This document shows positions 2,880 through 32,127 of a stretch of 64,000 nt of DNA, piece by piece. The stretch spans positions 672 through 64,671 of the forward strand of contig JAJZTQ010000013.1 in the NCBI GenBank assembly GCA_021848825.1, written 5' to 3'. Made by a program: the position numbers and the translations under genes. The notes below the pieces were generated by a model that worked only from the letters and a program-made list of their open reading frames with translations, was not told the DNA's origin and did not search any database. The stretch's first letter is position 1, and every line of letters starts with the position of its first letter. This DNA is from Pseudomonadota bacterium (GTDB lineage: Bacteria; Pseudomonadota; Gammaproteobacteria; Burkholderiales; JABEVD01).

Positions 2880-4202
2880 TCAATTTCTCAAAATCTGCAG
2901 GAGCGTGTTGAATTCCCTTGCGATCTCCGGGTTGGTCGATTTCAGCTCGACGATCTTCCTGCATGCATGGAGAACCGTGGTGTGATCCCTTCCGCCGAAG
3001 GCGTCGCCTATGTCCGGGAGGCTCAGCTGGGTCAGCTCCTTCGTCAGCGCCATCGCCATCTGGCGAGGTCTTGCCAGCACCCGCGTGCGCTTTTTCGAGT
3101 ACATTTCCGCAACCTTGATTTTATAATAATCGGCCACGGTCTTCTGTATATTTTCTATCGAAACCTGCCTGTTCTGCACCGCAAGCAGGTCCTTCAGGGC
3201 TTCCTTTGCAAGCTCGAGCGTGACGGCATGTCCGGAAAAGCGGCAATAGGCGAATACCCGCTTCAATGCGCCTTCCAGCTCCCTGATGTTGGAGCGGATA
3301 TGCTTGGCGATGAAGAATGCAACGCTTTCGTCCAGCGCCATGTTTTCGATCTCTGCCTTCTTCAGCAGGATCGCGACGCGCATTTCGAGTTCGGGCGGCT
3401 CGACGGCCACGGTGAGCCCCCAGCCGAAGCGGGAGATCAGCCTGTCCTCCACCCCTGCTATTTCCTTGGGATAGGTGTCGCAGGTGATGATGACCTGCTT
3501 GTGCGCGTCGACCAGGGCGTTGAATGCATAGAAGAACTCCTCCTGGGTCCTGGCCTTGCCGCTGAAGAACTGGATGTCGTCGATGAGGAGAAGGTCGAGG
3601 GAATGGTAATACTGCTTGAAGTCGTCGAATGCCTTGTGCCTGTAGGCCTTCACGACGTCCGACACATACTGTTCCGCATGGGTGTACCGAATCTTCGCAT
3701 CCGGATGCCGGTCGTGCACCAGATTGCCTATCGCCTGGATGAGATGGGTTTTCCCCAGTCCCACGCCGCCGTAAATGAACAGCGGATTGTAGGCGATGCC
3801 GGGATTCTCCGCGATCTGGATCGCTGCAGCCCTCGCCAGCTGGTTCGCCTTTCCAGGCACGAAGTTGTCGAAAGTGAATGATTTGTTGAGCCTGCTCTGC
3901 TCCCGGGGCGAGTACTTGCTTTGCTGCTGTGCCTGAGGAACAGCGGCCTTCTGGTTCGGATTCGGGGTCTCTGCGGAAACCAGGTCGAACTTGAACGGTT
4001 CGCCGAAGAATTCTTCCGCCATCTGTTCAATCTTGGAAAGGAACCTGTCCTTGATCCATAACGTCACAAAAGGGCTGGGCGTGACGAGCGCGTAGGACTC
4101 CCCGGTCAATTCCAGCCTGAGGGGCTTGATCCAGGTGTTGAACTGCTGCGCTGTCAATTCGCCTTTGAAGCGCTCGAGACAAGCCTGCCAGAATTTTTCC
4201 AT
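2880..4202 (-). CDS. dnaA: Chromosomal replication initiator DnaA
   Basis: [16 protein letters not shown] (Walker A), LLIDDIQF (Walker B), RELEGAL, and the domain IV motif [15 protein letters not shown]. Start is ATG 4202 (MEKFW), or the in-frame ATG at 4208. Confidence 0.99.
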
Positions 4203-4264
4203 TTGCATTTTTTCTATTTGTAAACAAATAGATGTGATTTGAATCTCGATTTGGGAATACCGGT

Positions 4265-4293
4265 ATTCTAGCCCCTTTTGGCGGACTTATCCA
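4265..4293 (-). promoter_or_regulatory. Putative sigma70 promoter of dnaA
   Basis: On the minus strand: TGGATA (4293-4288), 17 bp, TAGAAT (4270-4265). Confidence 0.55.
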
Positions 4294-4295
4294 CA
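4287..4295 (+). promoter_or_regulatory. Perfect DnaA box
   Basis: TTATCCACA in the dnaA-rpmH divergent gap; overlaps the putative dnaA -35. Confidence 0.85.
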
Positions 4296-4326
4296 GCCTG
4301 GATCGAAAATTTCGAAAAAAATAGAG

Positions 4327-4356
4327 TTGACAGGTGCGATCATAAAAGGGTGTAAT
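4327..4356 (+). promoter_or_regulatory. Putative sigma70 promoter of the rpmH operon
   Basis: TTGACA (4327-4332), 18 bp, TGTAAT (4351-4356); GGAGG RBS lies before ATG 4383. Confidence 0.65.
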
Positions 4357-4382
4357 TAATAGTTTTTCGATGGAGGTGCATT

Positions 4383-4517
4383 ATGAAGCGTACATATCAA
4401 CCTTCGGTTACCCGGCGCAAGCGTACGCATGGTTTCCTGGTCAGGATGAAAACGCGCGGCGGACGCGGTGTGATCAGGGCTCGCCGCGCGAAAGGGCGTG
4501 CCAGGCTCGGCGTTTAA
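4383..4517 (+). CDS. rpmH: 50S ribosomal protein L34
   Basis: Not in the ORF track (44 aa). Manual translation: [44 protein letters not shown]. Confidence 0.99.
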
Positions 4518-8030: not shown

Positions 8031-8046
8031 TGTTTCACGTGAAACA
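8031..8046. promoter_or_regulatory. parS site, perfect 16-bp palindrome
   Basis: TGTTTCACGTGAAACA immediately after the mnmE stop codon. Confidence 0.95.
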
Positions 8047-28589: not shown

Positions 28590-30767
28590 CTAAAACTCTA
28601 GCGGATCGACATCGACATGCCACCTGACAGTCCTGTTCGAAGCGTTCAGGAGCGGCAGAAGCGCTTTCAGAAAATGCTGCAGGTTCTGGCGCGATGAAGA
28701 CTGGAACAGGATCTGCGCCCTTTCCAGATTCCCGAGCCGCTCCATCGAGGCTGTGACAGGATCGAACACGGCGACGCCATCCTGAAGGCCTGTGGCGACC
28801 CCGAACACGTGGTCGAGAAAGGCCATTGCAGCCTCGAGGGAGCGAGATTCCGCCCGGATCAATGCCTGATGGACATAGGGCGGAAAGCCCGCTGTCCTCC
28901 TTTCTTCCAGCAGCAGTTCAGCCATCGTTCTGTAGTCGTGATGCTTGAGTGCAGAATAAAGAGGATGATCCATGAATTCCGTCTGGATCATGACTTCGCC
29001 TTTCTGCCCGGCCCTTCCCGCTCTTCCGGAGACCTGGGTGAGCTGGGAGAAAAGCCTTTCGGACGCCCGGAAATCGCTGCTGTAGAGGGAAGCATCCGGA
29101 TTCAGGATGCCCACGAGCGTGAGGTTGGGAAAATCATGCCCTTTTGCGAGAATCTGTGTCCCGACAAGAATGTCCACCTCGTTTTGCCTGATCTTCTGCA
29201 GCATCTCGTTCCAGGATTGCTTCCTCCTTATGCTGTCCCTGTCGATCCTGAGTATTCTGGCATCCGGAAAGATGATCCCGAGTTCCGATTCAAGGCGCTG
29301 CGTGCCGTGCCCCAAAGGCCTGAGATCGACATTGCCGCATTGCCGGCAGGAACTCATGATCTTTTCCTCGAAACCGCAATAATGGCACTTCAGGCGCTTA
29401 TCCTTCAGATGCAGCACGAGCTTGGAAGAGCACCTTCTGCAGGAAGGAGTCCAGGAGCAGGCGCTGCAGATCAGCGCAGGGGAATAGCCTCTCCTGTTCA
29501 GGAAGATCAGGCTCTGCTCGCCTCTTTCGATTCTCTCCCCGACAGCCTTGATGAGCTTCCCGCTCAGCCCTGTTCTCTTCCTTTCGAGCCTCATGTCTAT
29601 GAAGCTGATTTCAGGCAGGCTCGCCTCCGGAACGGCCCTGCCGCGGAGCTCCAGCATGCCGTAACGACCTTTCACCGCGCTGAAATAGCTCTCCAGGGAA
29701 GGCGTGGCCGAGCCGAGAATGACGGGAACGGCCTCCTGCTTCGCCCTCATCACGGCGACGTCCCTTGCGCTGTAGCGCAGTCCCTCCTGCTGCTTGAATG
29801 AGGGGTCGTGCTCCTCGTCGACCACGATCAGTCCTAGGGAAGAAAAAGGGGCGAATACGGCGAGCCGGGTGCCGAGAACGATCCTCGCTTCCCCGCTCTG
29901 GGCGCGCATCCAGTTCGCCATTCTTTCCCCGTCGCTCAGACCGCTGTGCAGGCTCGCCATGCCTGTTCCGGGAAATCTCGATCTGAAAACCTGTTCGAGA
30001 TGAGGGGTGAGATTGATTTCAGGCACGAGGAAGAGCGCCTGCCTTCCTGATCGGAGCACTTCGGCGATGACCTGAAGGTAGACTTCCGTCTTTCCGCTGC
30101 CGGTGATGCCGAACAGCAGCCAGGGATGAAATCCTTCCAGGTTTTCGAGAATTCGGGATGCGGCCTTTTCCTGTTCCTCGTTGAGGCAAGGATGATCCGC
30201 GATTTCCAGCGCTGCAGGCTTCTTCTCCGCTGCCTCCGCGTAGCCCAGGTCGAAAAGCTTTCTGACGACCGTGGAGGGAAATTCGGCGCGCAGTCCTTCC
30301 ATGGAAGCGCCCGGGTTCATTTTCAGGAATTCGACCAGCGCGTTGAGTTTCCGGCTTCTCTGGGGAAGAACGGCGGTCTTTCCCGCCTCCGAAAGGGCAT
30401 AGAATCTCTCGGGTTCAACGGGCTTTGCGCGCTTCAGTCTGGCAGGAAGGGCGTTCAGGATCACCGGCCCGATCGGGTAATGGTAATAGTCGCTGCAGAA
30501 CCTGAAAAGTTCGATGAGCTTCTGGTGCAGGGGGGGGATATCCCTGAAGATCGTTGAAACCGACTTGAGTCTGGATGGGCAAACCTCCGAATGCAGTCCC
30601 TTATCGAGGACGACGCCGACAGCCTCCTTCTTTCCGAAAGGCACGGCCACCCTGGCGCCGATGGGCGTTTCCTTTTCTCCCAGGTAATCGAAGAGCTCGA
30701 AGACCGGGACGTCAAGGGCCACCCTGATGATGTCGGGAGAGGTTTCCAATTTCGAGTTACATCGCAT
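28590..30767 (-). CDS. priA: Primosomal protein N' (replication restart helicase)
   Basis: GITGSGKTEVY, DEEHD, GSATPSLES, four CxxC zinc ligands, GTQILAKGHDFP. Confidence 0.98.
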   Translation of the reverse strand: MRCNSKLETSPDIIRVALDVPVFELFDYLGEKETPIGARVAVPFGKKEAVGVVLDKGLHSEVCPSRLKSVSTIFRDIPPLHQKLIELFRFCSDYYHYPIGPVILNALPARLKRAKPVEPERFYALSEAGKTAVLPQRSRKLNALVEFLKMNPGASMEGLRAEFPSTVVRKLFDLGYAEAAEKKPAALEIADHPCLNEEQEKAASRILENLEGFHPWLLFGITGSGKTEVYLQVIAEVLRSGRQALFLVPEINLTPHLEQVFRSRFPGTGMASLHSGLSDGERMANWMRAQSGEARIVLGTRLAVFAPFSSLGLIVVDEEHDPSFKQQEGLRYSARDVAVMRAKQEAVPVILGSATPSLESYFSAVKGRYGMLELRGRAVPEASLPEISFIDMRLERKRTGLSGKLIKAVGERIERGEQSLIFLNRRGYSPALICSACSWTPSCRRCSSKLVLHLKDKRLKCHYCGFEEKIMSSCRQCGNVDLRPLGHGTQRLESELGIIFPDARILRIDRDSIRRKQSWNEMLQKIRQNEVDILVGTQILAKGHDFPNLTLVGILNPDASLYSSDFRASERLFSQLTQVSGRAGRAGQKGEVMIQTEFMDHPLYSALKHHDYRTMAELLLEERRTAGFPPYVHQALIRAESRSLEAAMAFLDHVFGVATGLQDGVAVFDPVTASMERLGNLERAQILFQSSSRQNLQHFLKALLPLLNASNRTVRWHVDVDPLEF

Positions 30768-30823
30768 CCTTGTCGTCGATTCTAGGAAATACGTGCAACA
30801 TGCTTATTTAAAAGAATAAAAAG

Positions 30824-30858
30824 TTACTCACAAAACCTGTTGATAACTTTGTGGATTA
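30824..30858. promoter_or_regulatory. Cluster of three DnaA boxes (DARS-like geometry)
   Basis: TTACTCACA (30824-30832), 5 bp, TGTTGATAA (30838-30846), 3 bp, TGTGGATTA (30850-30858). Each box has 1 mismatch to TTWTNCACA. Confidence 0.75.
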
Positions 30859-31000
30859 TGCGCCATGCCGCTACGGCGTTTTTGCCAAAAAGGACGGCAA
30901 TCCCGTCATTCCCCGCAATGATTCAAAAAATACTCTTTATAATCAGAGTGATGAAATGGTATATCAGAATAGGCTGATTGTCTTCCGGCTTGCGGAAAGC

Positions 31001-31009
31001 TGTGCATAA
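31001..31009 (-). promoter_or_regulatory. DnaA box
   Basis: TGTGCATAA, reverse complement TTATGCACA, matches TTWTNCACA exactly. Confidence 0.6.
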
Positions 31010-31050
31010 GTCGGAATTGATGCTGCGGCAATGGATGTTTGGAAACCCGC

Positions 31051-32127
31051 CTATTGCGAAGCCACTTCGTGATATTTCCGGCTAGCCGAATGAACCGTCT
31101 CGACCATGATCCGTGCGTGCTCAGGATCGGTGTACTGGGAGATGCCGTGGCCGAGATTGAAGACATGCCCGCTTCCATGGCCGAAGCTCTCGAGGACCTT
31201 TTCCGTTTCCGCGACGATGTTTTCGGGGGAGGAAAAAAGCACGAAAGGATCCAGATTTCCCTGCAGCGCGATTTTTTCGCCAACCAGGCGTCTTGCCCTG
31301 CCTATGTCCATGGTCCAGTCCAGTCCAGCCGCATCGCACCCTATCGATGCGATGCTCTCCAGCCAGAGTCCGCCTCCCTTGGTGAAAACGATGTTCGGCA
31401 CCCTTCTTCCCTCTCTCGTCTTGTGCAGCGAAGAAACGATCTTTTCCATGTAGGAAAGCGAAAATTCGGCATAGGCGGATTCGGACAATGCCCCTCCCCA
31501 GGAATCGAATATCATCACCGCCTGGGCGCCGCTTTCTATCTGCGCGTTGAGATAATCCGTAACGGCCTTGGTATTCACTTCGAGGATATGATGGAGGAGG
31601 TCCGGCCTGCGGTAGAGCATGGTCTTCGTGTGCAGGAAATCGCTGCTGCTTCCGCCTTCTATCATGTAGCAGGCGAGCGTGAAAGGGCTTCCCGAAAAGC
31701 CGATCAAAGGAACCGAGTTGGCCAGAGCCTTCCTGATCTGCCTGACCGCATCCATGACATAGCCCAGGTGGGCGGATGGGTCCGGCGAAGAAAGGTTCTT
31801 GATCTCCCATTCGTCCCTGAGGGGTCTTTCGAATTTCGGCCCTTCTCCTTCGGCGAAATAGAGGCCGAGCCCCATCGCGTCGGGAACAGTCAGGATGTCG
31901 GAAAAAAGGATGGCGGCATCGAGCGGGAAGCGGGCAAGCGGCTGAAGCGTCACTTCGGTCGCAAGATCAGGGTTCTTGCAGAGCGAAAGGAAGCTTCCTG
32001 CACGGGCTCGGGTCTGGTTGTATTCAGGGAGATAGCGTCCCGCCTGCCTCATCATCCACACCGGCGTATAGGGAACGGGCTCGCGGAGCAGCGCCCGCAA
32101 AAAAGTGTCGTTCTTGAGCTGGATCAT
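31051..32127 (-). CDS. hemE: Uroporphyrinogen decarboxylase
   Basis: [47 protein letters not shown]. Confidence 0.99.

Follow-up and report, generated by a model that had tools for sequence, protein, structure and literature searches.

A cluster of three DnaA boxes upstream of priA raises the question of what such an element does in a betaproteobacterium. In an initial annotation of the window (the whole stretch of DNA analysed here, 64,000 nucleotides), it was read as a DARS-like, DnaA-reactivating locus, with oriC itself, a datA-like sink and DnaA control of priA named as alternatives. DARS sequences promote ADP release from ADP-DnaA, and extra copies of them lead to over-initiation. To our knowledge, E. 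coli is the only species for which the role of non-coding loci in the DnaA ATP/ADP cycle has been worked out. In the literature we found DARS-like sequences mentioned for relatives of E. coli, for V. cholerae and, loosely, for "many proteobacterial species", and found no betaproteobacterial analysis. The element in the hemE–priA gap is probably a DnaA/IHF control module located outside the origin and built around a DARS-type core, one of three copies in the genome.

The core is located in the 283-bp gap between hemE and priA (30768-31050). The three-box layout claimed in the initial annotation was confirmed: positions 30822-30858 read AG-TTACTCACA-AAACC-TGTTGATAA-CTT-TGTGGATTA, with the spacing 9-5-9-3-9. 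Compared with TTATCCACA, box I (TTACTCACA, 30824-30832, plus strand) contains two mismatches, and box II (TTATCAACA on the minus strand, 30838-30846) and box III (TAATCCACA on the minus strand, 30850-30858) contain one each. Box I is inverted relative to box II across a 5-bp spacer, and box III is a direct repeat of box II across a 3-bp spacer. In genomes of the same genus box I is conserved as TTAC(T/C)CACA; the form of box II is genus-specific, and in nearly all other families box II is a perfect TTATCCACA. Six DnaA boxes with at most one mismatch were found in the 64-kb window, three of them within 172 bp. On the priA side, box I is flanked by an AT-rich tract (30795-30823, about 25% GC) where relatives carry a run of five to seven A; GC is 0.25-0.32 across 30770-30859, and the A-run after box I is present in most modules.

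The gene priA, encoding primosomal protein N' (the replication-restart helicase), is located at 28590-30767 on the minus strand (NF004067, 926 bits), with its start 56 nt from box I. The upstream neighbour hemE, encoding uroporphyrinogen decarboxylase, is located at 31051-32127 on the minus strand, and its stop borders the gap. Both genes scored above the NCBIfam equivalog cut-offs, and the hemE-to-priA order is retained in Gallionellaceae, Sulfuriferula and at least one further family. dnaA (2880-4208, minus strand) lies 26.6 kb from the element, in agreement with the distance of about 26 kb given before. The genes run dnaA–dnaN–gyrB leftward from 4208, and rpmH–rnpA–yidC–mnmE–mnmG–rsmG–parAB–atp rightward from 4384.

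Across the whole 2.74-Mb draft genome, exactly three loci showed the 9-5-9-3-9 arrangement with at most 7 mismatches of 27 (3, 4 and 4 mismatches). As a chance control, ten first-order-Markov random genomes of the same size were scored in the same way and gave zero loci; the three-box arrangement is beyond chance. The hemE–priA core has 4 mismatches of 27. The module at C49:53963-53997, TAATCCACA-AATTC-TGTGGATAA-GTT-TGTTGACAA, has 3 mismatches and is located between two GGDEF/EAL-type signalling genes. The module at C29:48659-48693 (minus strand), CTATCCACA-TTTTT-TGTGGATAA-GTT-TGTTTGTAA, has 4 mismatches and is located in a divergent xseA/exbB gap. In both, an IHF-like site is present at -97, and position -66 matches the Fis consensus exactly.

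Searched as a degenerate pattern, the arrangement was present in 184 of 201 genomes taken from this GTDB order, which appears, from named relatives, to be the classical Betaproteobacteria; the reversed control pattern gave 6 matches in total in that order. Usually one to three copies per genome were found across the order, and complete relatives contained two to five modules per genome. We further took 80 priA loci from named genomes, 78 of which were usable. The closest PriA relatives belonged to Gallionellaceae, Sulfuriferula, Nitrosomonadaceae and Thiobacillus, with about 50% PriA identity. A high-quality trio was found at a near-constant distance from the priA start in about 43 of the 78 loci; those bearing the trio came from Gallionellaceae, Sulfuriferula and Thiobacillus, plus the same-genus copies. 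The 9-5-9-3-9 spacing was invariant in at least 40 priA-linked relatives.

The conserved region extends beyond the core. An IHF-like site (YAANNNNYTGWTW, mostly TAANNNNTTGTTT) was located 82-86 nt from box III in one orientation in 40 of 41 priA-linked loci, and about 24 of those loci contained a box TTAT(A/G)CACA 154-156 nt from box III. The geometry in relatives is thus box IV, 57-58 nt, IHF, 84-85 nt, III-3-II-5-I. In the window, the IHF-like site is AATCAGAGTGATG at 30941-30953 (plus strand, 1 mismatch to WATCARNNNNTTR), 82 nt from box III, and box IV is TTATGCACA on the minus strand (TGTGCATAA) at 31001-31009, with 1 mismatch and oriented as boxes II and III. Box IV follows the IHF site after 47 nt here and after 57-59 nt in other families, so that the first of the two window intervals (47 and 82 nt) is one helical turn shorter than in relatives. 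In same-genus genomes the gap keeps the trio, the IHF consensus, the fourth box and little besides, and the IHF site has 0 mismatches in four same-genus copies. Toward priA, the order of the module is box IV, about 47-58 nt, the IHF site, about 84 nt (with a Fis-like site in most copies), III-3-II-5-I, the A/T tract and the gene start.

No Fis consensus was found at the canonical place in the window copy, whereas the same-genus genomes G001, G007 and G008 retain it. A hairpin with a T-run resembling an intrinsic terminator (GACGGGATTGCCGTC CTTTTT, 30893-30907, minus strand), which is probably the hemE terminator, fills the interval of the Fis-consensus site of the paralogues and same-genus copies, and this accounts for its absence here. 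With two mismatches in box I, a non-consensus box II and no Fis consensus at the canonical place, the window copy reads as a degenerate member of the module. A second small hairpin with a plus-strand T-run (GCCGCTACGGCG TTTTT) was found at 30868-30887, between box III and the hemE terminator, where relatives carry an A-run (AAAACC); it may be a bidirectional terminator, or a stop for a short transcript reading through the boxes. No known RNA family matched the gap.

The same scaffold is common to copies in different gene contexts. Among 33 order-wide loci, 17-18 were located in the divergent xseA/exbB gap and 4 upstream of priA; other contexts were the fabF–pabC gap, a place beside an ABC-F gene, and the GGDEF-type genes around the C49 copy. 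Across contexts the start of the IHF-like site is found between -95 and -99 relative to box III. The exact Fis consensus (GNNYANNNNNTRNNC, typically GCC(T/C)A-N5-TGGGC) was found at -66 (+/-1) in 27 of 63 de-duplicated modules, against 12 scattered matches over all other positions combined; other copies have a Fis-like site at -64 to -66, and most paralogues carry such a site. With one scaffold kept in differing gene contexts, the module and not the neighbouring gene is the conserved unit. The window copy has the same composite build as the xseA/exbB modules of Betaproteobacteria, with equal spacings (IHF start near -97, Fis-like site at -66, trio III-3-II-5-I), but differs from them in its hemE–priA gap, its origin-proximal place, the missing Fis consensus and the lineage-specific box II (TTATCAACA). 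We found no publication describing the xseA/exbB modules of Betaproteobacteria as DARS-like elements.

Does the gap contain an origin of replication? With its AT-rich tract, DnaA boxes, IHF site and additional box, the gap is similar in architecture to E. coli oriC in its left half, and the usual rpmH–dnaA and dnaA–dnaN gaps are without a DnaA-box array, the former holding one box. In Alphaproteobacteria, hemE adjoins the origin. That the hemE–priA gap is the chromosomal oriC or a second origin is nevertheless most improbable. GC3 skew was split into a replication and a transcription component (gene-strand-corrected). The contigs of this genome formed two clean skew classes, and the contig of the window (C42) was of leading-strand type throughout, with a replication component of +0.048 (SE 0.013) at 4.3-30.8 kb and +0.049 (SE 0.012) at 30.9-64 kb. 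There is no GC3 inversion at the gap, which agrees with the non-origin reading of the initial annotation; the AT-rich tract is present, but it comes with no minus-to-plus switch and not as a single site, three equivalent modules existing in this genome and up to five in relatives. An origin at 30.9 kb is incompatible with the strongly positive replication component of the segment 4.3-14 kb (+0.105). The parS sites noted before were found again at 1733-1748 and 8031-8046, and they flank 4.3 kb rather than 30.9 kb.

The other two modules (C49 and C29) are also inside uniformly signed contigs. The sole skew switch seen, on contig C13 at about 225-255 kb, runs from plus to minus and represents the terminus; for the true oriC of the draft genome, no contig with a minus-to-plus switch was found. 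The 4 kb left of the rpmH–dnaA gap gave an ambiguous replication component (+0.025, SE 0.028). The complete Sulfuriferula sp. GW1 genome contains the hemE–priA module too, at 3,117 kb. The component there is mostly negative over 3,050-3,363 kb and near zero in two windows flanking the gap, and it turns positive just past dnaA, which places the origin at dnaA, 245 kb from the module. In a complete Nitrotoga-like chromosome both flanks of the gap are negative, again without an inversion, and in G013 each of three modules has the same sign on both sides. The skew signal of G126 was too weak for use. The oriC reading was discarded on the corrected GC3 skew of the window contig and of three complete or near-complete relatives, plus the copy number.

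Some further observations concern origins in this group. The rpmH–dnaA gap of the window (4209-4383) contains a single perfect DnaA box at 4287, and the dnaA–dnaN gap is tiny. Sulfuriferula sp. GW1 has an equally sparse rpmH–dnaA layout yet its skew switches directly at dnaA, pointing to an origin in this group that is unusually poor in boxes. In the complete 3.63-Mb chromosome G013:C1, the minus-to-plus switch is located at about 1.62-1.70 Mb and dnaA at 1.28 Mb, roughly 0.35-0.4 Mb apart; in that family either origin and dnaA have become separated or there was a recent inversion. At C37:10594-10668, four close DnaA-box-like repeats, namely TGTGGATAA and then TTACCCACA(G)ATTA three times, are located directly upstream of a 414-aa gene. 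This site was considered as an origin candidate or DnaA locus and rejected, as it resembles iterons or arm sites of an integrated putative mobile element.

Through comparison with the E. coli cores, we found the layout of the window core identical to both DARS1 and DARS2: three 9-bp boxes, with I and II inverted over 5 bp and II and III direct over 3 bp. The DARS1 core given in the initial annotation proved exact; 5424 E. coli genomes contain it at 99% identity or more (100% among the matches listed), in the bioD–uvrB gap. The claimed identity of 28/37 between the window and the true DARS1 core was reproduced by hand count. The DARS2 core of MG1655 is TTATTCACC-TTTTC-TGTGGATAG-AGT-TGTGAAGAA, in the rppH/ygdT–mutH gap. 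The window element is further similar to DARS in being chromosomal, intergenic, outside oriC and, probably, part of a promoter region. In DARS, the spacings of 5 bp and 3 bp are a conserved and functionally important feature (PMC6868365), and the inverted I/II pair with its 5 bp, together with the conserved spacers, matters for ADP release (PMC6868365; PMC5742627). In E. coli, 52 box pairs are similarly arranged and only two of them are DARS (PMC5835720), so that the layout is a weak predictor of reactivation.

Beside its core, DARS2 also has IHF sites (58 and 74 nt from box III) and a Fis consensus beyond them, at 110 nt; the betaproteobacterial module likewise has IHF-like and, in the paralogues, Fis-like sites beside the core, and its IHF site is in a shared helical phase with that of DARS2 (84 versus 74 nt). 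However, the order of sites is different: core, IBS and FBS in E. coli DARS2, and core, Fis-like site, IHF and box IV in the betaproteobacterial module. The module also differs from DARS in its neighbours (priA, exbB/xseA), in the fixed fourth box beyond IHF and, in this genus, in the non-consensus box II.

The genome encodes Hda (over cut-off), IHF alpha and beta, HU and a Fis homologue; the cofactors needed by a DARS system, including Hda/RIDA as the source of ADP-DnaA, are thus encoded. The DnaA protein is 57% identical to that of E. coli, and L290, D269, R285, R334, F239 and K243 are kept, of which L290, D269 and R334 belong to the residues employed on DARS. A Ser is found at the position of E. 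coli Gln208, a head-to-head contact residue needed specifically for the release of ADP that depends on DARS in E. coli (PMC6868365).

The earlier reading as a DnaA-reactivating locus stands in part. The core layout, the conservation in relatives, the non-origin position and the encoded cofactors agree with it; the DARS-type link to DNA-repair genes, which had been drawn through priA, is weak, the same module adjoining exbB, pabC and GGDEF genes elsewhere. Because of the core layout we tentatively favour DARS-type ADP release, by which the module would regenerate ATP-DnaA. Stimulation of ATP hydrolysis as by datA, or plain titration of DnaA, is ranked second and seems rather unlikely. From sequence, activation and inactivation of DnaA cannot be told apart.

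The case for the opposite direction comes mainly from the outer part of the module. The datA locus is located in the glyVXY–queG gap, where IHF bending joins two DnaA-bound segments and hydrolysis of DnaA-ATP is IHF-dependent. In MG1655, box 2 (1245-1253 of L175) is followed by 56 nt, the IBS (TAACCTATTGATA), 84 nt and box 3, all in one orientation, and after box 3 an inverted box 4 follows at 3 nt; no match to the Fis consensus was found in the scanned datA stretch. The element analysed here resembles it in the box–IHF–box series in one orientation (57-58 and 84-85 nt in relatives, 47 and 82 nt in the window), in another box 3 bp beyond, and in its origin-proximal position. This spacing and orientation, equal to those of box 2, IBS and box 3, would fit a datA-type locus repressing re-initiation rather than promoting it. 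The essential datA boxes all have one direction (PMC5742627), and boxes IV, III and II share a direction in the same manner. The priA-linked copy is also origin-proximal, as datA is: its distance from dnaA is 26.6 kb in the window, 245 kb in Sulfuriferula and 82 kb in G170. Such an IHF geometry (box–57–IHF–84–box), matching datA rather than DARS2, together with the origin-proximal copy, keeps the datA-like alternative live.

The two elements are nevertheless unlike on either side of the IHF site. In datA, a low-affinity box 7 with box 2 is located on one side, and box 3 with box 4 (inverted, 3-bp spacer) on the other; in the window element these places are taken by box IV alone and by a DARS-type trio. 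An inverted box I at 5 bp is the hallmark of DARS, whereas the inverted box 4 of datA has a 3-bp spacer and is dispensable in vivo. At 74 nt, the IHF site of DARS2 shares this helical phase, so the box–IHF spacing is not unique to datA. We consider a datA-type function rather unlikely for these reasons, and ADP release continues to be the reading that we prefer.

A further possibility is that the element acts on priA only. The distance from box I to priA residue 13 is 76-77 nt in most relatives, 85-97 nt in Sulfuriferula and 92 nt here, and a near-invariant distance to the priA start is expected of a plain DnaA-controlled promoter. Box I faces a nearby gene start elsewhere too, at about 85 nt from exbB and about 44 nt from pabC. 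DnaA is known to act as a transcription factor, and each E. coli DARS is itself located in a promoter region (PMC5835720, PMC6015884). In this case the boxes would be a DnaA-dependent operator or activator of priA, with IHF in an architectural role and no effect on the nucleotide state of DnaA, and expression of the restart helicase might be coupled to initiator status. We regard it as unlikely that this is the whole function. The five-part geometry is kept before unrelated genes and also where box I faces the 3' end of a gene, as in C49 of this genome and in G027; and a scaffold of 200 bp for DnaA, IHF and Fis with helically phased spacing far exceeds the needs of an operator. A sigma-70 promoter scan of the gap gave no sigma-70-like promoter. 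The sequence was present only in DNA metagenomes from mine drainage, and three metatranscriptomes of the same study contained zero reads on the gap or on priA. The roles as operator and in DnaA control are mutually compatible, and the fixed distance of box I from the priA start in several families makes a promoter role likely too.

Returning to the control module, we infer binding by DnaA and IHF, and each functional step of the following scheme, from the sites and from E. coli. DnaA would occupy box II first. From there it might recruit further DnaA, head-to-tail on box III and head-to-head on box I, in the manner of the E. coli DARS core. An IHF bend could bring DnaA at box IV into contact with the resulting oligomer, as happens between boxes 2 and 3 of datA. 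The off-origin complex would alter the nucleotide state or the availability of DnaA, and through this the timing of initiation. Modulation of the neighbouring priA promoter by the bound DnaA is probable as well, in parallel with DARS1 at uvrB and DARS2 at mutH.

Considering the mixture of features, we might speculate that Betaproteobacteria carry two to five DnaA–Fis–IHF modules per chromosome in which the DARS trio is fused to the datA scaffold, and that whether a module recharges or discharges DnaA is set by its position and cofactor occupancy, not by its sequence class. The origin-proximal priA copy would then act soon after initiation, as datA does, and tie priA expression to initiator status, and the mid-replichore xseA/exbB copies would be DARS-like. 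We regard this proposal as rather unlikely.

The priA-linked origin-proximal member, the fourth box with its datA-like spacing and the exact three-copy census are new here, as are the skew tests in complete relatives and the Gln208-to-Ser difference in DnaA. The module is sharply defined and near-universal in Betaproteobacteria, with a fixed DnaA/IHF/Fis geometry at few conserved chromosomal sites; this makes the generality of DARS/datA control, and a shared ancestral design, directly testable. The DARS and datA types possibly come from one such design, a point open to test, and cultivable carriers exist in Sulfuriferula, Ferriphaselus and Cupriavidus. The linkage to priA suggests a tie between initiator status and the replication-restart machinery.

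Several minor features were also found in the modules. A uniform orientation of the module relative to fork direction was considered and rejected by hand comparison: the three copies here agree with it, and copies in G013, G076 and G205 disagree. A TTAGC motif, often as part of GCTTAGC (palindrome GCTNAGC), was located 27-28 nt after box I in 28 of the 63 de-duplicated modules (e.g. L053, L044 and L011), with no -10 partner at sigma-70 spacing. A second TTAGC was found about 20 nt before box III in 26 of the 63 modules, and the window has TTGCA in place of TTAGC at 30786-30790. In some families the modules form tandem arrays, which might act as amplified control loci, with four or five modules spaced 120-200 bp apart (G126:C1:2426919-2427589, G169:C1:249535-250477, G017:C3:16630-17178 and G170:C1:735459-736558). 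The xseA/exbB gap is the site of L036 and L037, and those upstream of priA are L039 and L040.
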